Source: an uncultured Gammaproteobacteria bacterium (lineage in GTDB: Bacteria > Patescibacteriota > Microgenomatia > Levybacterales > UBA12049). From it: a DNA stretch of 64,000 nucleotides. The stretch spans positions 86,706 to 150,705 of the forward strand of contig CAZAZU010000001.1 in assembly GCA_964490105.1 (NCBI GenBank), read 5' to 3'. The notes beneath the pieces were generated by a model that did no database searches, was not told where the DNA came from, and worked only from the letters and a program-made list of their open reading frames with translations. The translations under genes were made by a program, and so were the position numbers. Shown piece by piece: positions 7,596 through 43,335 of the stretch. Position 1 is the first letter of the stretch. The number at the start of each line of letters is the position of its first letter.

Positions 7596-8219
7596 CTAGC
7601 CTCTATAGCCTCTTCTTTGACCAAATACATCATTACTTGCGATAGGCGCAGAAAAATCCTTAATCCGTAGAGTTCTTGTGACGCTGCCAAATCTTGGTTG
7701 AACTGGACCAGTAACATGATCTAAAAAATTCCCAGGAGTAATAGGTCTGTTAGGATCAAAAGGAGGAGGAGAAGTAGGATCTTGATAAGTTTGGGTAACT
7801 GGTTCTGGTTCAGGACGAGCTAACTGCTGTGTAAATAATGAAGCATAGTCGCTAAGGGATCTAAAAGCCATGGTAGGATTTAATCCGCGAAGAGTCGCGA
7901 GGAATTCGTCCATCCTACTTCGCTCAACTGGCGATAGAAATGGATAGTTATCAATTCTTGCGAGCGTAACTAATTTTACGTCGAGAATTCTTTTAGTCAT
8001 TTGATCCTGCATATGAGCTATTTGTTTTTCTGAAAGCCCAGTTAAGTCAATTCCACTGATTACCGCTTCTGCCATGGATGCATCAATAGTACCGTGTCTT
8101 CTTCGTGTAGGATCCTCAGGATCTGGCTCTGCGAGTTTTAATGCTATAACATCTTCTACAGCCTTCCAATCAATAGGATCTTTATCTTTTTTCCCTCTTC
8201 TAGGTTCCTGATCTACCAT
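7596..8219 (-). CDS. hypothetical protein (island A), Pro-rich C-terminus
   Basis: 207-aa ORF. Its own TTGACA-N17-TATAAA promoter sits at 8228-8256 on the minus strand, with an 8-nt leader. Confidence 0.35.
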   Translation of the reverse strand: MVDQEPRRGKKDKDPIDWKAVEDVIALKLAEPDPEDPTRRRHGTIDASMAEAVISGIDLTGLSEKQIAHMQDQMTKRILDVKLVTLARIDNYPFLSPVERSRMDEFLATLRGLNPTMAFRSLSDYASLFTQQLARPEPEPVTQTYQDPTSPPPFDPNRPITPGNFLDHVTGPVQPRFGSVTRTLRIKDFSAPIASNDVFGQRRGYRG

Positions 8220-8227
8220 AAGGGATG

Positions 8228-8256
8228 TTTATACTACTAAATATTTGTTCTGTCAA
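8228..8256 (-). promoter_or_regulatory. sigma70-type promoter TTGACA-N17-TATAAA for the 7596-8219 gene
   Basis: On the minus strand: ttgaca gaacaaatatttagtag tataaa catccctt ATG. Confidence 0.5.
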
Positions 8257-8268
8257 CTAAATTTAGCC

Positions 8269-8297
8269 TTGACATAATCTTATAGTATTTATATAAT
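8269..8297 (+). promoter_or_regulatory. sigma70 consensus promoter TTGACA-N17-TATAAT, 6 nt upstream of the ATG at 8304
   Basis: -35 at 8269-8274, -10 at 8292-8297. Preceded by TTTAGCC at 8262-8268. Confidence 0.55.
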
Positions 8298-8303
8298 CCG
8301 CGC

Positions 8304-8687
8304 ATGGAAAAAAGCGATAGAAAAACACCGCCAGAAGAATTAAGAAGACAGGCTTCAATTAGACTTGCGCAGGTGAAAGCAGCAGGATTAGATGGTCAGG
8401 TAGGAGAAGTCGCGCGTTTTATGGCTTACGCTGCAGGATTTGAGATGGAAGCATTCGCCACTTATCCAAGACAGGATTTTAAAAATAGAAGAAAAAGCGG
8501 GATGGCTGCATTTAGACTTTTCTCAGAAATTTCCGACCATCAGCATGTGGTGACTTTTGGAACATTAATGCTTGAAATTCTTGATGGAAATTTATCCCGT
8601 GATGCTAAAAGAGAGATTAAAACAGGCATTAAGAAATCTAGAGCTCAGCTTCCTCAAAGCCCGATACCTCCAGTACAGAATATTTAA
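8304..8687 (+). CDS. hypothetical protein (island A)
   Basis: 127-aa ORF, leaderless-type promoter, no clear motif. Confidence 0.35.
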   Translation: MEKSDRKTPPEELRRQASIRLAQVKAAGLDGQVGEVARFMAYAAGFEMEAFATYPRQDFKNRRKSGMAAFRLFSEISDHQHVVTFGTLMLEILDGNLSRDAKREIKTGIKKSRAQLPQSPIPPVQNI

Positions 8688-12208: not shown

Positions 12209-12277
12209 TAGATATATTTTAAGATTGATTTAAGCAATGTGTCAATAAGAAGTCTACTTCTGTTATAATTAGCCTCA

Positions 12278-13375
12278 ATGAATTTATCTATTGGAATTGT
12301 GGGCTTTCCAAATGTAGGGAAATCCACGCTTTTTAATGCTTTACTAAAACGCCAACAGGCGCTTGTTGCTAATTATCCGTTTGCGACAATTGAACCAAAT
12401 GTCGGAGTTGTTCCAGTTCCTGATTCCCGTTTGGAAAAAATTGCCGAGATAACTCGCGATGAGGAAAAAATGGGGAGTTTGCCTCCGATTAAGCCTGCAA
12501 CTGTTAATTTCGTTGACATCGCGGGCTTAGTGAAAGGAGCTTCGGAGGGAGCAGGTTTGGGCAATAAGTTTCTTTCTCATATTCGTGAAGTCTCTGTTAT
12601 CGCTCATGTAGTCAGAGCTTTTGAAGACTCGGATATTGTAAGAGAAGGTTCGGTGGGAGTTAAAGAAGATTACGAGACAATTAATACAGAGCTTATGCTT
12701 GCAGATATGCAATCAGCTGCGAATCAGGACGGGAGACTTAAAAGTAATGATCCGAAGAAAAACTTATTTGCAAAAATAATTGCAGGCTTGGACAGGGGAA
12801 CACCGGTTAGGGATATTGATTTTACAAAAGAAGAACAAGAAGAGGTAAATAACATGTCATTTCTAACTAATAAACCTGAAATAGTGGTTTTAAATGTTTC
12901 AGAAGCTGATTACGCTTCGGAAAAAATTGACGGAATCTCTAAGGATTATTCAGAAAAATTAAATATAGGAATTGAAAAAGTAGTAGTAATTTCTGCAAAA
13001 ATCGAAGCAGAACTTGCAAGTTTATCTAACGAAGAGCAAGTAGAATATTTAAAAGATTTAGGGCTTGAATTTTCAGGACTTCAAAGATTGATTCAAAAAG
13101 CTTATCAAGAACTTGGTTTAATTTCATTCTTAACAGCAGGGGAGAAAGAGGTAAGAGCCTGGACAATCCGCAAAGGGTTGAATGCTCAGTTAGCGGCAGG
13201 AGAAATTCACACAGACTTTATAAAAAGATTTATAAAAGCAGAAGTCGTAGGGTTTGACGCGTTTGTCGAGTTCTCAGGATGGAAGGGAGCACGCGAAAAT
13301 GGAAAAGCGCAATTAGAAGGACGGGATTACATAATGCGTGACGGTGACGTAGTTGAATTTAAAATCGGAACCTAG
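12278..13375 (+). CDS. ychF: ribosome-binding ATPase YchF (Obg-like GTPase family) with C-terminal TGS domain
   Basis: 365 aa. P-loop [17 protein letters not shown]. Motif [11 protein letters not shown]-terminal TGS ([10 protein letters not shown]). Confidence 0.85.
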
Positions 13376-13962
13376 CTTTTTGATCTCATTTTTCTAATAA
13401 TGTGATGCGCTAGATTATTAACCAGGGGAGTAAGTATTACTAAATAAGCCCATTTTTCCCAAAGAATTTCTAAAGGGTTTGTCTTGTATTTAAATTTTTG
13501 ATAAGTTTGGGGACTTAGTTTTTTCAATTCGTCGTTAACTTTAAAAAAGTCTAAATTTAGCCCTTCTTTTTTAAAAACCATTTTTGCGCGACCGGCAAAT
13601 TCATTAGTGGTCAAACCTATTAATTGATTGAGTCCTAAATTTTTAATTATTTTTTTTACTTCTATTGCATTTTCTATGGTGTCAAATGAATTTTCTTCCA
13701 GGATAATTTTATTTTCAGGAATTTCCGGAAACTTTTTTAATATAAATTCTTTCATAGCCGCCGCTTCGGAAGGAAATTCAACACCTGCAGTTTTGCCGCC
13801 AGAAAAAATAATTTTATTAAAATTACCAGTTTTAAATAAAAAACCTGCTGCAAAAACGCTTAACTCAGACCTGTCAGAAAGAAAGTGGGGAGTTTTTCTT
13901 ATTTTTTCTCTAGTCCAGCCGACTCCGATGTTTTTCCCTAAGACTATTAATGCATCAAACAT
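13372..13962 (-). CDS. DUF218/YdcF(SanA/ElyC)-like protein
   Basis: 196 aa. Pattern LIVLGKNIG...IIFSGGKTAG is typical of the DUF218 fold. Overlaps the ychF stop by 4 nt. Confidence 0.4.
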   Translation of the reverse strand: MFDALIVLGKNIGVGWTREKIRKTPHFLSDRSELSVFAAGFLFKTGNFNKIIFSGGKTAGVEFPSEAAAMKEFILKKFPEIPENKIILEENSFDTIENAIEVKKIIKNLGLNQLIGLTTNEFAGRAKMVFKKEGLNLDFFKVNDELKKLSPQTYQKFKYKTNPLEILWEKWAYLVILTPLVNNLAHHIIRKMRSKS

Positions 13963-29920: not shown

Positions 29921-30232
29921 GTGAATGTTATGGACGATCAAAATAATCCAACGGTTGGAACTCCAGACCCAAATGCAGGTGGAATGCCACCTCAAGATCC
30001 AGGAGTAGGAGGGGGAATGCCAGCACAGGATCCTAATGCAGGGGGAGGAGTAACTCCACCACCAGCAGAAAATCCAGGAGCAGGAGAAGCACCGGCAGTT
30101 GACCCAAATCAGGGGTGGACACCGCCACCTGCACCCTCAACGCCACCAGCAGCTGACCCAAGCGCAGGAGTACCTGCCGGAGAACCAGCTCAGGGTGGAG
30201 GAGACCAGGGAACAGGACAAGGAGTAGTTTAA
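29921..30232 (+). CDS. Gly/Pro-rich low-complexity repeat protein
   Basis: 103 aa. SD AAGGGGGTGA. Repeating D-P-N-A-G-G-G-(M/V)-P units. The nucleotide sequence shows approximately 30-bp degenerate tandem repeats. Confidence 0.4.
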   Translation: MNVMDDQNNPTVGTPDPNAGGMPPQDPGVGGGMPAQDPNAGGGVTPPPAENPGAGEAPAVDPNQGWTPPPAPSTPPAADPSAGVPAGEPAQGGGDQGTGQGVV

Positions 30233-30303: not shown

Positions 30304-30313
30304 TTAATGCTAG

Positions 30314-30397
30314 TACCGGGGGAGGGATTCGAACCCTCAAGAGTTTTAAGCCCACGGGTTTTTGAGACCCGCGTGTATACCGTTCCACCACCCCGGC
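30314..30397 (-). tRNA. tRNA (type II, long variable arm), anticodon CAA -> Leu
   Basis: Reverse complement GCCGGGGTGGTGGAACGGTATACACGCGGGTCTCAAAAACCCG...GAGGGTTCGAATCCCTCCCCCGGTA. Acceptor stem 7 bp. T-loop TTCGAAT. Anticodon loop CTCAAAA. CCA not encoded. Confidence 0.65.
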
Positions 30398-30442
30398 GAT
30401 TAAATATGGATTTTTAGCCTTGTTTATTATATACTTTCAACT

Positions 30443-36479: not shown

Positions 36480-37202
36480 ATGAGCGGACATTCTAAATGG
36501 TCAACAATTAAAAGACAAAAAGGCGCAGCTGATGTAAAGCGCGGTGCAACTTTCACGAAAATTTCTAATGCTATTACAATTGCGGTGAAACAGGGTGGGG
36601 GAATAGGAGACCCGGATCAGAACCCCAGGCTTCGTTTGGCGATAGAATTAGCAAGAAGCGCTAATATGCCAAAAGACAATATTGAACGCGCCATTACGAG
36701 AGCTACGAGCAAGGAGGCGGGAGATTTAACAGAGCTTACCTATGAAGGGTTTGCACCCGGTGGGGTAGCAGTATTAGTTGAAGCGGTTACGGACAATGCA
36801 AATAGAACAACTAGTGAGGTAAAAAGTCTTTTTAATAAATCAGGGGCAAGTTTTGCTGGTCCTGGAGCTGTTGCATATCAATTTGATCAAACAGGGGAGA
36901 TATCAGTTTTAAAGAATGGAAAGTCAATTGATGATATTTTTCTTCAAGCAGCAGAATTAGGAGCTACGGACGTTGAAGATAGGGGAGAAGAGGTAGCTGT
37001 TTACACTCAAGTTGTAGATTTATCTAAAATTAAAGAGGGACTTATTGCGTCGGGAATTGAAGTAACAGGAGCTGAAATTTCAAGAAAACCTAAGAACGCT
37101 ATGTCTGTCGGGGAAGAACAGAAGGAAAAAATAGTTAATTTCCTGTCAGCGCTTGAGGACATGGATGATATACAAAAAGTTTATTCCAATGTCAGTCTTT
37201 AA
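36480..37202 (+). CDS. yebC: YebC/PmpR-family DNA-binding transcriptional regulator
   Basis: 240 aa. MSGHSKWSTIKRQKGAADVKRG is the diagnostic N-terminus. Confidence 0.85.
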   Translation: MSGHSKWSTIKRQKGAADVKRGATFTKISNAITIAVKQGGGIGDPDQNPRLRLAIELARSANMPKDNIERAITRATSKEAGDLTELTYEGFAPGGVAVLVEAVTDNANRTTSEVKSLFNKSGASFAGPGAVAYQFDQTGEISVLKNGKSIDDIFLQAAELGATDVEDRGEEVAVYTQVVDLSKIKEGLIASGIEVTGAEISRKPKNAMSVGEEQKEKIVNFLSALEDMDDIQKVYSNVSL

Positions 37203-38006
37203 ATGAAGTTTAAATCTTCTGCTTTTTTAAAAAAGAATATTTTCACAAAAAGACAACGCTTCGGTGTTGGTGTACTTATCCTCTCTATCTGTTTGTTTCT
37301 GGTTGAGCATTTCCTAACTAGATCCGGAATATATTTAGTTATTCTACTTTCTTTCTTGACCAATGGATTTCTATATTGGGCGCTTCACAAAGATCTTAAG
37401 GGTAATTTCACGCCACAGGTTTTTATCTTGCCTTTCCTTTATACACTTGCATTTGGTTTGTTCTATTTCTCACTTCCACCGCGTTTACTTGTGCAAACAT
37501 TTTTAACAGTTCTTTATGCAATAGGACTTTACTCTGCATTTCTGAGTCAAAACATTTTCACAATTTCAACCGTTAGAACTATAGCTTTATTATCAAGTGC
37601 TCGAACAGTTTCTTATGTTTTATCAATTTTCGTATACGCTTTTTTCACAAACACAGTATTTAGTTCTCAGTTAAGTTTTTTCATAATACTTCCTTTGATA
37701 TTTATCTATTCATTCCTTCTTATAGTTCATTCGTTGTGGACTTATACGCTGGAAAGGAAAGTAAAAACTGAAATTATTTGGGGAACATTCTTAAGTATCG
37801 CGTTAACTCAAATGTCATTCTTGTTATGGTTCTGGCCAAGTAAGCCACTGGTAATATCACTTTTCCTGACAGGTTTTTACTACATCATAGTAGGACTTGC
37901 TCACTTATGGTTTGAGAAAAGATTATTTAAATCAGTTCTATGGGAATATGTCTGGGTAGCTGTTTTCGTCTTTATAGTATTAGTAGTGTTTACTTCCTGG
38001 ACATAA
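37203..38006 (+). CDS. hypothetical polytopic membrane protein
   Basis: 267 aa, 7-8 TM helices. Confidence 0.4.
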   Translation: MKFKSSAFLKKNIFTKRQRFGVGVLILSICLFLVEHFLTRSGIYLVILLSFLTNGFLYWALHKDLKGNFTPQVFILPFLYTLAFGLFYFSLPPRLLVQTFLTVLYAIGLYSAFLSQNIFTISTVRTIALLSSARTVSYVLSIFVYAFFTNTVFSSQLSFFIILPLIFIYSFLLIVHSLWTYTLERKVKTEIIWGTFLSIALTQMSFLLWFWPSKPLVISLFLTGFYYIIVGLAHLWFEKRLFKSVLWEYVWVAVFVFIVLVVFTSWT

Positions 38007-38037
38007 AAAGGGAAGTGGAGGCTACTAATAGACCAAA

Positions 38038-38906
38038 ATTAAACTCCTATTCTATTATCAGGCACCAAATCGAAAAACATTTTAGGCACAAATTGAGGCT
38101 AAGCATTCTAAAAAATGTCATTAAATAAGACAGGGAAGAGGAGAGTGCTATGTGAGGCTAGTGATATAGTTTGATATGGGTAAGGGTGATATAGTGTGAT
38201 ATAGTTATTCAGCAAATTATTATAGGACTTAAATGGACAAATTTTAGCCTCATGCATGTAATTTCACGGGTTTTTACAACAATTTTCACAACCTCGCAGG
38301 TCCATACTCACGCCTACAGAGTACCGTAGATAGTTATGTTCTCAGATCGGGAAATGCGACGTGCGTTCATTATACGAAGATTATACTTTCTCTCCTTGCT
38401 CGCTATATTGGTCCTACACAAATCGAAAAAAATACGAACGCTGAGTTAATAACATTTTGAGGCTAAAAAATGTAGTTTAGCTTGATAGATCAATCTAAAT
38501 GTGATCTATGTGGATAACTCTACTTGTAGGGTACTAAGTGGTTTAGGATATTAAGCAAATTACTAACCATTTACACGTCCTAGGGAGTGATCCGTCCTTA
38601 AAACTAAACGTAGTGACTTATATCATTCTCTCTATAAGGATATAACTTTAAAAAAAAGACATATTAGGCGCTAGGAAGTAGAAACTGATAACGTCGTAGA
38701 ATAATACTTTTACGACGTCACGGAGGCTAGTATACCCGGAGAAGACCCTTTTTTCTTTCCAATTTTTCTCCTATATTTATTGAAATTTTATAATTCGTTT
38801 TACTTTCCGCTGTCAGATCTCTCTATTTATTTGAATTGCTTAAAATTATTCCGCTCCCCTGCTATAGGATACTATTTTATTTATAATTTGAGGCTAAATG
38901 AGGCTA
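38038..38906. repeat. ORF-free region with 8 dispersed copies of GAGGCTA(A) in both orientations, 3 tandem GTGATATAG, an inverted repeat and a DnaA-box-like TGTGGATAA
   Basis: GAGGCTA at 38038, 38115, 38174, 38265(rc), 38459, 38723, 38890 and 38900. GTGATATAG at 38181, 38206 and 38216. IR GATAGATCA-N9-TGATCTATG at 38484-38510. TGTGGATAA at 38509-38517. AT-rich block 38749-38815. Confidence 0.6.
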
Positions 38907-38984
38907 ATTTTCAATTACTATCACACTCATCCAGCCATAGAGTAGTGGTTATTCACGGACTTTTAAAGTAGAAAGGTTTATTGG

Positions 38985-39443
38985 CTATTTCTTTTTCGGT
39001 TCTGGAGCTCGTACAACTAAGGAGCGATTTATGTATACATCTGTGGGGATTTGCGGTTGACCGTTTTTATCAAGTCGTACCATTCCATCATTAATGCGAA
39101 TGTCAGGATCATCAGCGTTTAATTTAACTCGCACCCATGAGCCATTTTCAGCATAACCTGATACTTCAAATCTTTCTCCAATAGGAGCTTTTCCAATAGG
39201 AGCAGAAACAGTAGATGGACCGCCGCGAAGAGTTGCTCCTTCATTTTCTACTAGTTGATCCATGATTGCACTATTATAACTTCCAACCTTGACATGGGTT
39301 AAGGGTTTCGGTGCTTCTGGTAAAGGCGCTGCAAAGGAAAGGGTTGTGGAGAGCGCAACAGCTCCGACAGCTCGTCTGTGTCTAAAAGTGAACCTGGCAG
39401 CTTCAGCTATAGATTTTGGTATTGATCTTAATCTGTCTGACAT
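38985..39443 (-). CDS. secreted SH3b-domain protein (island B)
   Basis: 152 aa. Signal peptide with RR (RFTFRHRRAVGAVALSTTLSFAAP). SH3_3-like core ATLRGGPSTVSAPIGKAPIGERFEVSGYAENGSWVRV. Higher GC than flanks. Confidence 0.45.
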   Translation of the reverse strand: MSDRLRSIPKSIAEAARFTFRHRRAVGAVALSTTLSFAAPLPEAPKPLTHVKVGSYNSAIMDQLVENEGATLRGGPSTVSAPIGKAPIGERFEVSGYAENGSWVRVKLNADDPDIRINDGMVRLDKNGQPQIPTDVYINRSLVVRAPEPKKK

Positions 39444-39486
39444 AGGTGTATATTATAACTATAGGCTCTGGGTATGTCAAGTTAAA

Positions 39487-40260
39487 TTATGACTGTGGAT
39501 TTCCAACCTGGGTGGTTACAGAGTGTCCTGCGATTGATGCTATGCCAACTTGATCAGCAGGAACGACTGTTTCTCCAAGTTCATTTTTACCAGTTAGCTG
39601 ACCATTTTCGAATCGAGCACTTATTATACCGCCGCTTGAGTCAATGGGAGTGATATGAGAGTCTGTAGAACTACTGTGACTTATAAAGCCAACTGTCTTA
39701 GTGATGTCTCCTAAGGGGCTTTTGTGTTCAAGTTCTACTGCAAGCCAAGGAGCTTCTAGAATTCCAGACGAAGGATCGGTGGCCATGGCAATCGGTGTAT
39801 TCTCGATAATAAATGGGGTTTTTCCATCCCACGCAGTCCCATTAATTGATATTATATCGTTCATTTCGATATAATTGTCTCTTCCTTCTTGTCTATCATC
39901 AAAATCAGGCATATAAGGATCATGCCGGATTACTAAATCTTTTTCACCCTCTTTATGAATCTCAACAAGATACTTATTCGTATCAATTTGTTTAAGCATA
40001 CTATGATAGCTCTGAAAGGATTCTGCGGGAGGTTTACTAACCTCGTCAACTATATGTGCGACACCTGCTCCTCCGCCTGCAATTATTCCTAATGCCAGGG
40101 CTATGTTTCTAATTCTGTGACGCACGCTTGGGCCGTGGTCTTTAGATGATGTTATTCTTCTTGCCTGCTGAATCCTGGGATTGTTAGAGCTTACTTGATC
40201 GATTGATCTAAAAGCTCCTTGTGATGGTCTAATGTCTCGCCCATGTGATCCTTCTGGCAT
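39487..40260 (-). CDS. hypothetical membrane-anchored protein (island B)
   Basis: 257 aa. One TM (IALALGIIAGGGAGVAHIV) after a basic N-terminus. Confidence 0.35.
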   Translation of the reverse strand: MPEGSHGRDIRPSQGAFRSIDQVSSNNPRIQQARRITSSKDHGPSVRHRIRNIALALGIIAGGGAGVAHIVDEVSKPPAESFQSYHSMLKQIDTNKYLVEIHKEGEKDLVIRHDPYMPDFDDRQEGRDNYIEMNDIISINGTAWDGKTPFIIENTPIAMATDPSSGILEAPWLAVELEHKSPLGDITKTVGFISHSSSTDSHITPIDSSGGIISARFENGQLTGKNELGETVVPADQVGIASIAGHSVTTQVGNPQS

Positions 40261-40291
40261 GATTAATTTATATCATCCTTAGGATCTTATT

Positions 40292-40699
40292 TCAAACTTT
40301 TGGAAATTGAACCGGAACCTTTCTATCAACTTGAGTAAATAATTCCCACGCTTTGGCAAGTGAGGCTGGCCTTAAAACTCGAGAGTCTGGTTGACCTTGT
40401 CGATATTCGTACTCTGTTACATCTCTGCCATCTATGGCAATTCCTTTCATTTGCATGGGATTTTCAGTATCTGGGGTTTCAAAGAAATATACATATCTCG
40501 TCACATGCGGATGGTGCGTTAATCTTCCCTCAGTTATAACAGGTATGCTGCCAAGTCTTGTGCCAAGTACATTTACCGATCTTCCTCTTACGTCTTCATG
40601 ATCGTTCGTCATAGTAGAAGTAACTTTCTCAAGGATCCTATCGGTTAAAATTTTTGGATTACCTCTTTCGTGAATTGATATCGCTAACTCAGTAAACAT
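40292..40699 (-). CDS. hypothetical protein (island B)
   Basis: 135 aa. Own promoter TTGAAT-N17-TATAAT on the minus strand at 40708-40736, with an 8-nt leader. Confidence 0.35.
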   Translation of the reverse strand: MFTELAISIHERGNPKILTDRILEKVTSTMTNDHEDVRGRSVNVLGTRLGSIPVITEGRLTHHPHVTRYVYFFETPDTENPMQMKGIAIDGRDVTEYEYRQGQPDSRVLRPASLAKAWELFTQVDRKVPVQFPKV

Positions 40700-40707
40700 A
40701 AGTTGCC

Positions 40708-40736
40708 ATTATAAAGGATTAAGGTTGACTATTCAA
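40708..40736 (-). promoter_or_regulatory. sigma70-type promoter TTGAAT-N17-TATAAT for the 40292-40699 gene
   Basis: Overlaps a plus-strand TTGACT-N18-TATAAT (40725-40754) that points toward xer. Confidence 0.45.
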
Positions 40737-40989
40737 TTCCACGCGTCGTATAATTAATCAGCTGCGGTGATCATGATTGCTCCTTTTTACAACGCAAGCG
40801 TCGCAAAAAGGATCTGGCATAGCTAAATATAATAATTTATGAATTATAGCCTGCCCATAACTAGTAATAATCCTCGATATAGTCTGATCTACTTCGATAT
40901 AGAAATATTTCAAACGTGGCGCTCCTCCCCTATCTCTGCTAATCGACGTTTTTCTGGGAATTTAGCCTTGAATTTTATCTTATAGTATT

Positions 40990-41925
40990 ATGGAAGAAAA
41001 GCTTTTAAAGTACACTGAAGATTTTTTAGAGTATCTGGAGATCGAGAAAAACTGCAGTAAGCTCACGATCCGAGATTACAGGCATTATCTGGAGGTGTTT
41101 AGGATCTGGCATAAAGAGACAATTCCCACTAAAGAACTCGATAAATTGGACTTATCAGATATAAGAAAATACAGGGTTTATTTATCTAACAAGGTCGACG
41201 TTAAAGGTGCGGGGTTAAAGCGAGTTACTCAAAATTACTATATTATCGCCTTTCGCTCTTTCCTTAGATTCTTGATAAAAAATGACATCAAGACTCTTGA
41301 GCCATCAAAAATAGATCTCCCTAAGACGGAAAGCAGATCTTTGAAATTCCTGGAAAGAGAGCAAGTGGATAGGCTGGTAACCAGTCCTGATACTTCTAAA
41401 GAAGAAGGTGTTAGGGATAGAGCAATTATGGAACTTTTGTTCTCGACTGGCCTTCGTGTATCTGAACTTGTGAGTCTTAACCGCGATCAGATCAACTTAG
41501 AGCGAAAAGAGTTCGGAATAATAGGAAAAGGCAGGCGTTCAAGAATTGTGTTCGTTTCTGATAGAGCTGCGGAGTGGATACAAAAATACCTCAATCACAG
41601 GAAAGACGATTTTAAGCCTATGTTCATCCGGTATTCAGGGGCAGTAATTGAGGAGAATAATGGCGAGAGAATGAGGCTTACGGCTAGAAGCGTTGAGAGG
41701 ATTGTTAAGAAATATGTGAGGCAGGCCAGAATTCCTGTGGATGCTACGGTTCACACTTTGCGCCATAGTTTTGCGACAGACTTATTAACTAACGGCGCGG
41801 ATCTAAGATCGGTTCAGGAGATGCTGGGGCATAAGAATATAGCTACTACTCAGATTTATACTCACATAACAAATAAACAATTAAGAGAGGTTCATAAATC
41901 TTTCCATAGTGGAAATGATAAGTGA
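40990..41925 (+). CDS. XerC/XerD-family tyrosine site-specific recombinase
   Basis: 311 aa. N-terminal SAM-like core-binding domain (FLEYLEIEKNCSKLTIRDY). Catalytic motifs R...HxxR...Y (LRHSFATDLL...LGHKNIATTQIYTH). Confidence 0.8.
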   Translation: MEEKLLKYTEDFLEYLEIEKNCSKLTIRDYRHYLEVFRIWHKETIPTKELDKLDLSDIRKYRVYLSNKVDVKGAGLKRVTQNYYIIAFRSFLRFLIKNDIKTLEPSKIDLPKTESRSLKFLEREQVDRLVTSPDTSKEEGVRDRAIMELLFSTGLRVSELVSLNRDQINLERKEFGIIGKGRRSRIVFVSDRAAEWIQKYLNHRKDDFKPMFIRYSGAVIEENNGERMRLTARSVERIVKKYVRQARIPVDATVHTLRHSFATDLLTNGADLRSVQEMLGHKNIATTQIYTHITNKQLREVHKSFHSGNDK

Positions 41926-42900: not shown

Positions 42901-43335
42901 TTAAAGACTGCAGTCTACAGTAACGAAGTCATCTTTATATAATGCTTTTCCTTCGTTTTGTTCTTTCACAGATAAATAATATTTTCCTGTTCCGCATGTT
43001 CTTTTAGTTATTTTCCAATAACTGTCGTTATTCAAAACTTTAACTCTATTGGATTCAATTCCCATAACTACCACATCTTTTGCTTTAGGAATAGGTGCTT
43101 GGGTTGGTTTTTTCGTCGGTTCTGTTATTGCCGCTGAGGTAATTTTATTGGATTGATTTGAGCTTAGATTTGAAATTGCAAAAATCGAAACAGGTAGTAT
43201 GGCGAGAATTGCGACGAAAGAAATAGTAATTGCTAGCTTTCGCTTTTTAGTTCGTCCGGGTTTTTTTGGGTCTAAATAAATACTTTTATAATCTTCTCCC
43301 CAGTAGTTTATTTGAAAATCTTCATTTGCGCTCAT
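42901..43335 (-). CDS. hypothetical membrane-anchored protein
   Basis: 144 aa, single TM, C-terminal Cys pair. Confidence 0.35.
   Translation of the reverse strand: MSANEDFQINYWGEDYKSIYLDPKKPGRTKKRKLAITISFVAILAILPVSIFAISNLSSNQSNKITSAAITEPTKKPTQAPIPKAKDVVVMGIESNRVKVLNNDSYWKITKRTCGTGKYYLSVKEQNEGKALYKDDFVTVDCSL

Follow-up and report, generated by a model that had tools for sequence, protein, structure and literature searches.

A single recombinase of the XerC/D family serves the XerS/difSL system of streptococci and lactococci, the XerH/difH system of Helicobacter and Campylobacter, and the archaeal XerA/dif system. On plasmids, cer and psi combine an XerCD core with about 160 to 200 bp of accessory sequences, and the pdif modules of Acinetobacter, which move between plasmids, carry two complete sites in opposite orientation. 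For XerS/difSL and XerH/difH, genetic linkage between site and recombinase is described as a hallmark (PMC5357621), and the pseudo-dif sites of integrative mobile elements exploiting Xer (IMEX) usually combine one degenerate arm with a central region that varies (PMC3025954). Here, we describe a locus in a 64-kb stretch of DNA (the window; the genome comprises at least 785 kb) in which a 28-bp near-palindrome, site A, lies 2.27 kb upstream of xer, the gene for a tyrosine recombinase, with three orphan genes exactly between the two. The initial annotation of this stretch had suggested that the three genes may be an integrated Xer-dependent element or a remnant beside the chromosomal dif. On balance and with modest confidence, we favor a different reading, namely a conserved single-recombinase Xer module of a small-genome lineage resembling the candidate phyla radiation (CPR)/Patescibacteria, combined with a variable slot of orphan genes. 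The locus is laid out as follows.

36480-37202, plus strand, YebC, preceded in the left flank by LytR_C and TPR (Pfam)
37203-38006, plus strand, DUF5656 (Pfam)
38007-38984, non-coding region of 978 nt with no open reading frames (ORFs), between the convergent DUF5656 (plus) and 152-aa (minus) genes
38691-38718, site A, 11-6-11 near-palindrome ACGTCGTAGAA-TAATAC-TTTTACGACGT, candidate Xer core (dif-like) site
38985-39443, minus strand, 152-aa ORF
39487-40260, minus strand, 257-aa ORF
40292-40699, minus strand, 135-aa ORF
40990-41925, plus strand, xer (tyrosine recombinase)
Right flank, all minus strand, SIMPL, a 144-aa orphan, FolD, GyrA, H+-PPase, and GyrB

The coordinates confirm the three minus-strand ORFs and the tyrosine recombinase gene at 40990 reported in the initial annotation. 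A divergent intergenic region of 290 nt separates the 135-aa gene from xer.

Site A was the single standout when the non-coding stretches were scanned for 11-N-11 inverted repeats. Its arms are complementary at 10 of 11 positions around a 6-bp spacer, and it is situated 267 nt past the last orphan gene. For comparison, four congeneric genomes were found by exact-protein look-ups and homologue searches (L005/L006, L007, L008/L009, and L095), with flanking genes 79 to 87% identical to the window at the DNA level. Site A is invariant in these congeners and falls within the best-conserved block of the non-coding region; no other non-coding element of the locus is as strongly conserved. The more distant locus L014, with a YebC only 55% identical and surroundings that are otherwise unalignable, has a copy identical at 26 of 28 positions. 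Exact matches are present in 13 metagenome loci, which had been fetched with a degenerate site A pattern as the query, so that conservation there is biased by construction; the site follows DUF5656 in all nine of those that reach far enough, and YebC is there too in eight. L014 was retrieved independently of site A, as were L047, a Paceibacterota metagenome-assembled genome (MAG), and L069, these two through YebC alone. At the same position after DUF5656, L047 carries ATGTCGCACAA-TGATAC-TTTTGCGACAA and L069 carries AGGTCGCACAT-TAATAC-TTTTGCGACGT, and their xer genes (56 and 61% identical) start about 0.8 and 1.0 kb further on, respectively. In L047 and L069, the two arms have changed symmetrically (C>T at position 2 with G>A in the other arm and T>C at position 7 with A>G), as expected if one protein reads both arms. 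Across lineages, site A stays within 0.8 to 3.7 kb of xer over a range of Xer identity of 56 to 99%, and wherever both are seen, it lies on one and the same side of xer. The left arm furthermore matches the left arm of the Bacillus subtilis dif, ACTTCCTAGAA (PMC3025954), at 9 of 11 positions.

Taken together, these features make site A a probable Xer target, as predicted from its sequence and position. The initial annotation had envisaged a dif beside a single xer, at copies of a GATATAG word near the ends of the gene cluster. The proposal of a linked site finds support in site A, 2.27 kb upstream of xer, while its placement at the GATATAG words does not hold; these lack an 11-6-11 organization, which was found at 38691-38718 instead. 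The full site was not found in viral contigs. The 18-mer matches in such contigs fall inside phage coding sequence and lack the left arm, and the one left-arm match is an ordinary promoter that contains ACGTCGTATAAT by chance. A search for the canonical dif, CATAATRTAYATTATGTNAA, with up to 3 mismatches gave no match, and the palindrome was rejected as an intrinsic terminator since there is no T-run on either strand.

The recombinase itself (311 aa) contains the Pfam domains Phage_int_SAM_1 and Phage_integrase and is the only tyrosine recombinase in the 64-kb window. Its NCBIfam scores for XerD (259.5 bits), XerC (259.1 bits), and XerA (215.6 bits) are all below the cut-offs, and C versus D is unassignable. 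The best solved relative is Escherichia coli XerD (1a0p), in a full-length alignment to which the catalytic R, K, HxxR, H, and Y all conform (GLRVSE, GKG, HTLRH, and LGH...IYTH). The domains, the equal XerD and XerC scores, and the aligned catalytic residues bear out the XerC/XerD hallmarks that had been noted before. With a dN/dS of 0.024, xer has the lowest value of nine genes, and the protein is 72 to 79% identical in lineages where YebC is 55% identical. The gene is also the outlier of the window in GC content at third codon positions (GC3), with 41.7% versus about 25% for nearly all other genes; a similar but smaller excess is seen in L014 (35% versus about 27 to 28%). Selection on nucleotide content or codon choice may underlie this excess, which exists despite vertical inheritance.

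Like the single-recombinase systems XerS/difSL, XerH/difH, and archaeal XerA/dif, the locus has one XerC/D-family recombinase, a near-symmetrical site with similar arms and A/T-rich inner ends, and linkage of site and gene; the XerA score is close below its cut-off of 220. Unlike XerS and XerH, the protein has the classical XerC/D size (XerS, 141.6 bits; XerH in the PDB, E value of 2e-11), and the 6-bp spacer of site A differs from the 11-bp spacer of difSL. In contrast to single-recombinase systems with an adjacent site, genes intervene in the 0.8 to 3.7 kb that separate site A from xer. The locus is also set apart from them by the lack of a nearby skew switch, by arm copies in the xer promoter, and by a motif array of about 1 kb around the site. 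The array includes motifs at a fixed distance from the core, YTAYAGG at +167 to +175 from site A in every locus with sequence extending to that point and a pair of GAGGCTA words near +200. These might be likened to the accessory sequences of cer and psi, a likeness that we infer entirely by analogy; unlike cer and psi, site A is chromosomal, and the motifs are unrelated to ArgR, PepA, and ArcA sites.

Additional copies of the arm sequence are found at the xer promoter.

40725-40754, plus strand, xer promoter TTGACT-18-TATAAT, back to back with the promoter of the 135-aa gene and invariant in congeners
40743-40753, plus strand, arm copy GCGTCGTATAA, which contains the -10 element of the xer promoter
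40781-40812, inverted arm pair TTTTACAACG-caag-CGTCGCAAAA in the 5' region of xer, with the GC-rich ends facing each other

At up to 1 mismatch, the window contains eight arm 10-mers, versus 3.75 expected. Two of them form site A, three are located within 65 nt upstream of xer (40744, 40785, and 40799), and none stands 5' of the 257-aa or 152-aa gene. The inverted pair, in which L008 shows a compensatory change, is arranged back to back, the wrong geometry for a core site or for strand exchange. A CGTCGCAAAA copy upstream of xer recurs in L005, L008, L014, L100, and L093. In L014, the xer promoter (TTGACA-17-CAGAAT) has the arm ACGTCGCAGAA over its -10 element (13843-13853), followed by two more arm copies; the xer promoter of L069 (TTGACA-17) has the arm ACGTCGCACAT; and L047, L100, and L093 have one arm copy each upstream of xer, in the same orientation. 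In other words, every lineage checked has an arm copy upstream of xer in the same orientation, and in three (the window, L014, and L069) it overlaps the -10 element. We read these copies as candidate operators for autoregulation by Xer, on account of their position, rather than as integration scars, because they are present even in L047, where the interval between site and xer is nearly empty.

We propose that an Xer homodimer would bind both arms of site A and recombine there, and that it would bind the single arm copies over the -10 element of its own promoter and in the 5' region, leading to autoregulation. The fixed parts of such a module would be YebC, DUF5656, the motif array of about 1 kb, the 28-bp core site, and the strongly constrained xer. 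Chromosome-dimer resolution would be the most likely role of Xer at site A. The geometry, the conservation, the linkage to xer, and the very strong constraint on Xer favor site A as the chromosomal dif, and we regard its function as the dimer-resolution site as a serious possibility that falls somewhat short of probable.

Known dif sites are located near the skew shift point (PMC3025954). In the window, an excess of G at third codon positions, and likewise of T, exists on the plus strand on both sides of site A from position 1 to about 72 kb, the skew analysis having been extended 8 kb past the window end. Plus-strand GC3 skew is +0.19 and +0.15 to the left of site A and +0.13 and +0.15 to its right, and L014 is likewise without a strand-skew switch near its site. 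The peak that the raw cumulative skew shows near 42 kb is due to a run of minus-strand genes 12 kb long. Site A is at least 33 to 38 kb from any shift point, which corresponds to 4 to 5% of a 785-kb genome. A distance of 5% of genome length has been used in the literature as a criterion for the separation of dif and shift point, and site A is at the edge of it; a shift point farther out may still fall within 5% of the genome.

Several points weigh against an Xer module with site A as its target. There is no switch in strand composition from 38 kb to the left of site A to 33 kb to its right. That xer and its site are single is known for 64 to 72 kb of a genome of at least 785 kb, and the perfect conservation in the 13 metagenome loci is in part a product of using the site as the query. 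Changes that preserve the palindrome also fit a DNA or RNA hairpin. The action of Xer at site A is a prediction from sequence, and autoregulation is suggested by the position of the arm copies. Finally, the three orphan proteins are without domain matches (an SH3_3 match of the 152-aa protein is sub-threshold), and their structure models are poor.

As to the genes between site A and xer, the gene order in L005, L007, and L008 is that of the window (xer, the 135-aa, 257-aa, and 152-aa genes, about 980 nt of non-coding DNA, and DUF5656), and no empty site was found in any congener (L005, L007, L008, or L095). Divergence from the congeners is distributed as follows.

152-aa protein, 38 to 57% aa identity, dN/dS of 0.17 to 0.30
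135-aa protein, 57 to 76% aa identity, dN/dS of 0.12 to 0.17
257-aa protein, 66 to 81% aa identity, dN/dS of 0.11 to 0.13
Flanking YebC, DUF5656, Xer, and TPR, 90 to 98% aa identity
YebC, Xer, TPR, SIMPL, and FolD, dN/dS of 0.02 to 0.08

The interval between site A and xer evolves 2 to 6 times faster than the flanks, and the 152-aa gene is the fastest-evolving gene of the locus. Just past SIMPL, the 144-aa orphan (42901-43335) has no Pfam or NCBIfam match and shows 60 to 63% identity and a dN/dS of 0.16 to 0.19. It evolves as fast as the three genes, which indicates that a fast rate is typical of the orphans of this genome and not specific to the slot.

In composition, too, the three genes resemble their surroundings. 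The GC content of 38985-40699 is 41.3% (40.0 to 43.1% per gene), and not about 45% as first estimated, against a window mean of 36.7%. The excess sits in codon positions 1 and 2; GC3 is 25.5 to 29.5%, the same as in the neighbors, and many housekeeping genes in the window are equally GC rich overall (40 to 41%). The promoter style that had been thought to mark the genes as an island, a TATAAT-like -10 hexamer 6 to 9 nt before the ATG without a Shine-Dalgarno sequence, occurs at many genes across the window. Leaderless-type starts of this kind are seen, for example, upstream of 1811, 6779, 7596, 8304, 9376, 12278, 21348, 23240, and 48990, and a GGAGG-type ribosome-binding site precedes only a few genes (e.g., 2983 and 29930). 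Judged by these predicted starts, the host seems to use leaderless mRNAs widely, as a trait of the organism and not a marker of an island.

Because synteny is identical, homologue clusters are few, GC3 and promoters are host-like, and dN/dS is below 1, we conclude that the three genes are native, lineage-specific orphans inherited vertically within the genus and that the locus is no integrated island. GC content and short direct repeats suggested an island, and the comparative data do not support it. An IMEX needs core sites on both sides, and only one full 11-6-11 site exists here, the other side having single or back-to-back arms; nor are there mobile-element genes or foreign composition (no PHROGs or Pfam matches; GC3 as given above). 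The arrangement is similar to that of CTX-phi, TLC-phi, and the gonococcal genetic island in that genes without a recombinase stand by a dif-like site with a degenerate dif-like sequence opposite. Unlike these IMEX, it has no mobile genes, no congeners with an empty site, host-like composition and promoters, and breakpoints off the sites. Like the pdif modules, it associates genes with an Xer site and differs in content between relatives; unlike them, it has one complete site, and its breakpoints are at coding-sequence ends. A recent IMEX is at odds with the identical order in congeners, the lack of an empty site, the host-like GC3 and promoters, and the position of the breakpoints. The empty-site comparison proposed in the initial annotation returned the same genes at the same place in the congeners and no empty allele, and this, together with GATATAG repeats that do not have the geometry of Xer-binding sites, is essentially what that annotation had itself named as evidence against its proposal.

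The course of divergence within the interval is illustrated by L095. At the protein level, identity to the window is 98.6% for its Xer and 98.3% for its DUF5656, and its homologues of the 135-aa and 152-aa proteins are 27 to 29% and 28 to 30% identical, respectively. In the slot of the 257-aa gene, behind a conserved promoter and a conserved MPE start, stands a gene for a 198-aa protein that is not significantly similar (22% when an alignment is forced), and L095 has two more ORFs besides. At the DNA level, the window and L095 cease to be homologous at 38950, immediately after the final stop codon, and become so again at 40865, with promoter segments in between being kept. Similarly, in a second genus, L092 and L101 are 78 to 84% identical on both sides and unalignable across a coding sequence of about 250 aa that adjoins the palindrome. 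Relationships within the locus are mosaic: L005 is the nearest relative for the 257-aa and 152-aa genes, and L008 is the nearest for the flanks and the 135-aa gene. Hence, allele replacement is confined to coding sequences in two genera, and the pattern is one of diversifying evolution and allelic exchange through conserved flanks, not of site-specific insertion.

Lineage by lineage, the interval between site A and xer contains the following.

Window genus, three orphans
L095, four or five orphans
L014, one unrelated 285-aa gene
L100, a 256-aa Tat-signal protein and a transaldolase
L093, a transaldolase, a glycosyl hydrolase-like protein, and DUF4230
L092 and L101, a membrane protein of about 250 aa and DUF4230
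L069, one 263-aa gene
L047, only small ORFs (nearly empty interval)

The gene adjoining the site often encodes a protein of about 250 aa with an RR-containing anchor, without detectable homology between lineages, and domain searches of the slot proteins of other lineages yielded nothing except DUF4230 in a flanking gene. To judge from this gene content, the interval is a long-standing variable slot of orphan genes.

The non-coding region between DUF5656 and the 152-aa gene is strongly conserved. In the congeners, where synonymous sites are saturated (dS of 0.9 to 2.3), its length is kept at 978 to 988 nt and its identity is 73 to 81%, and its motif blocks recur in the same order in family-level loci. 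A conserved motif region is also seen at the same position in L005, L007, L008, L014, and L092-L103. The motifs of this platform, together with the second GATATAG cluster near xer, are listed below.

Within 38007-38984, a purine-rich GGGAAGAGGAG box
Within 38007-38984, GAGGCTA, with six of the nine TGAGGCTA copies of the window
Within 38007-38984, TATAGG and paired TTCACGG
38161-38207, plus strand, left GATATAG cluster GTGATATAGTTTGATATGG...GTGATATAGTGTGATATAG, four 10-bp-phased direct repeats, invariant in congeners
38509-38517, minus strand, DnaA-box sequence TTATCCACA, the single perfect one in the window
38860-38906, plus strand, CCCCTGCTATAGG (the YTAYAGG motif) and tandem TGAGGCTAAATGAGGCTAA, motifs to the right of site A at fixed spacing
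40874-40906, plus strand, right GATATAG cluster TCGATATAGTCTGATCTACTTCGATATAGAAAT, three 10-bp-phased repeats 85 to 115 nt upstream of the xer ATG

For TGAGGCTA, the nine copies compare with 2.2 expected. Congeners and several family-level loci retain the DnaA box as ATGTGGATAACTC, at positions that vary, and DUF5656 and site A are 440 to 1150 nt apart, depending on the lineage. The window contains 14 copies of GATATAG (8.7 expected), and five of them, all on the plus strand, form two tight clusters (38163/38188/38198 and 40876/40896), with spacings of 10-15-10 on the left and 10-10 on the right. A same-strand GATATAG is found 415 to 770 nt to the left of site A in 14 of 14 related loci, and a pair with 20-nt spacing is found to its right in the window, L005, and L014. 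The words pointed out in the initial annotation are real and conserved, with the correction that the left GTGATATAGTTTGATATGG lies at 38161-38179 and not at 38181-38199. They do not delimit an island: the left cluster is about 800 nt from the nearest gene of the supposed island, beyond the conserved non-coding region. Neither are they dif-like half-sites, being tandem 10-bp-phased direct repeats and not of Xer core geometry. Presumably, these repeats are binding sites for some protein, and neither Xer core sites nor element junctions.

Rfam gave no match in 37900-41100 at gathering or permissive thresholds, and RNAalifold around the palindrome (10 sequences, 313 columns) gave -5.3 kcal/mol without compensatory pairs. 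From its motifs, the region 38007-38984 looks like a platform of protein-binding DNA sites, not an RNA. A conserved 15-codon micro-ORF at 38898 was considered and rejected; its conservation is at the nucleotide level, with no synonymous-site pattern. Elsewhere in the window, a GAGGCTAA/TTAGCCTC (or AAGGCTAA) motif stands beside promoters at 8220-8303, 12270-12277, 30415-30424, and 40960-40977. It includes a palindrome, AAGGCTAAATTTAGCCTT, between the divergent promoters of the genes 7596-8219 and 8304-8687 and a copy directly before the ATG at 12278. By its placement, this motif may be the site of a global regulator.

How far do other explanations account for the locus? The palindrome and the arm copies might be operators of another DNA-binding protein, or a hairpin element, with Xer acting at a dif in another part of the genome; the locus would in that case amount to conserved synteny plus a cluster of fast-evolving genes. 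Such a protein or hairpin would be compatible with the lack of a skew switch at site A and with the symmetric arm changes, which fit any homodimeric binder or a hairpin. It would also suit the linkage to YebC and DUF5656 in every locus that reaches far enough, there being no xer in the right flank of about 2 kb of L094 and L102, and the inner end of the arm (TAnAAT) does resemble a -10 hexamer, the viral-contig promoter having ACGTCGTATAAT by chance. However, it leaves aside the 11-6-11 geometry, the A/T-rich inner arm ends, the 9/11 match to a known XerC-side arm, the co-occurrence of site and xer over a wide range of Xer identity, the placement of arm copies specifically at the xer promoter, and the absence of intrinsic-terminator features and RNA covariation, and we consider it doubtful. 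A somewhat less likely alternative is that the interval is an Xer-dependent cassette site of the IMEX, pdif-module, or integron type and the three genes are an old integrated element, genes being captured or exchanged by recombination of site A with the degenerate arm sites beside xer. The cargo does fill exactly the space that separates a full 11-6-11 site from arm copies in direct orientation, the content differs by lineage and is nearly absent in L047, coding sequences have been replaced between conserved flanks in two genera, and the phylogeny inside the interval is mosaic, with L005- and L008-closest genes. Yet homology breaks at coding-sequence ends (38950, and 40865 with kept promoters) and not at site A or 40743-40770. 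The xer-proximal sites lack a second arm or are back to back, central regions differ (TAATAC versus TTAATC), and arm copies precede xer even in nearly empty L047. Moreover, the genes have separate promoters of the host type and a host-like GC3, empty sites were not found among the congeners, and neither site nor cargo was found in viral contigs. Unlikely, too, in our view, is a terminus-independent chromosomal Xer system that would join dimer resolution with accessory sequences to a capture or exchange point for surface-protein cassettes. To work at a distance from the terminus, a site would have to use an FtsK-independent mechanism like that of cer and psi, and a role in capture or exchange, if true, would explain why each lineage has different hypervariable orphans between site and xer.

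Two further explanations carry little weight. The non-coding region of about 1 kb might be a replication origin or a large non-coding RNA gene, with the palindrome as part of it. A long non-coding stretch so strongly conserved in a compact genome, a perfect DnaA box, iteron-like 10-bp repeats, and gyrA and gyrB nearby could be taken in this sense. This is nevertheless very unlikely given the single DnaA box (with 9 near-matches, fewer than the 17 expected), the lack of a skew switch, flanking genes that converge on the region, the variable distance between DUF5656 and the site, the absence of an Rfam match, and a consensus fold of only -5.3 kcal/mol devoid of compensatory pairs. Least probable of all, and in our estimate only barely worth considering, is recombinase-driven phase or antigenic variation of the Mycoplasma Xer1/vpma or Ureaplasma mba type, in which Xer would invert or shuffle surface-gene DNA. 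An Xer-like recombinase does adjoin fast-evolving genes for putative surface proteins, arm copies are present in promoter regions, and there is a precedent in Ureaplasma, where Xer-family recombinases have reportedly been tested for site-specific inversion at phase-variable loci. But the three genes are not paralogues and have a promoter each, arm copies are lacking in front of the 257-aa and 152-aa genes, the promoter arm is in direct and not inverted orientation relative to the full site, and one orientation is seen in seven of seven assembled versions of the locus.

The three orphan proteins are mutually unrelated. At its N terminus, the 152-aa protein has a hydrophobic signal or anchor that contains RR, in agreement with the initial annotation. 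The SH3b domain assigned to it there corresponds to a weak SH3_3 match below the cut-off (25.2 bits, E = 1.9e-5; gathering score, 27), which covers residues 69 to 108 only, is faint in precomputed matches, and is absent in L007 and L008. Its gene has a perfect promoter of its own (39480 to 39452). The 257-aa protein, which has no Pfam, NCBIfam, or PHROGs match, is read as a disordered basic N terminus, one transmembrane helix (residues ~50 to 72), and a beta-rich C-terminal domain; its promoter, as read from the sequence, is TTGAAA-17-TATAAA (40295 to 40267). Only 10 homologues, at 63% identity or more, were found among 5.8 billion clusters. For the 135-aa protein, which has no transmembrane segment and a gene with a promoter at 40736 to 40708, there were only 12 (at 62% identity or more, in the same clusters), and a family profile search found 4 clusters among 1.84 billion representatives. 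AlphaFold (AF2) models of the 257-aa and 135-aa proteins are too poor for a meaningful fold search (predicted local distance difference test scores of 47 and 53).

The initial annotation had also suggested a phage-derived lysis or adhesion cargo. This finds no support, as none of the three proteins has a PHROGs match, the 257-aa and 135-aa families have no tblastn-confirmed relative in IMG/VR viral contigs, and the full site has no copy there. By prediction, one of the orphans is cytoplasmic, one is a single-pass membrane protein, and one has a signal or anchor with a weak SH3b match, each gene apparently being transcribed from its own host-type leaderless promoter. From their architecture and evolutionary rate, we infer that the three proteins could be envelope associated and under diversifying pressure, the 135-aa protein perhaps serving as a cytoplasmic partner.

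Some features of the remaining window deserve mention. An ORF at 29921-30232 has a GC content of 55.8% (GC1, 81%) in a 37% GC genome and encodes a Pro/Gly/Ala-rich low-complexity protein. It has a rare GGAAGGGGG ribosome-binding site and adjoins a tRNA-Leu(CAA) gene (30313-30397), and no RNA family match was found in this region; it may be what the initial annotation called island A. At 53599-64284 (and in L116), a complete type IV pilus/type II secretion-like cluster is present on the plus strand, with two ATPases, a platform protein, several N-methyl pilins, and PilM. It runs opposite to the minus-strand gene blocks on both sides. The gene content of the window, in particular the DUF5656 synteny in common with the Paceibacterota MAG, points to the CPR/Patescibacteria rather than to the Gammaproteobacteria, and so do the small genome and a groundwater source that names a 0.1-um filter.

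CPR/Patescibacteria have tiny genomes and a poorly understood cell cycle, and our literature search found no described Xer/dif system in this group. A constrained single Xer with a linked palindromic core site is a testable candidate for chromosome-dimer resolution in CPR, and the arm half-site inside the xer promoter suggests a simple form of autoregulation. Likewise, the hypervariable orphan genes for putative envelope or secreted proteins are candidate determinants of host or phage interaction in an episymbiotic lineage.

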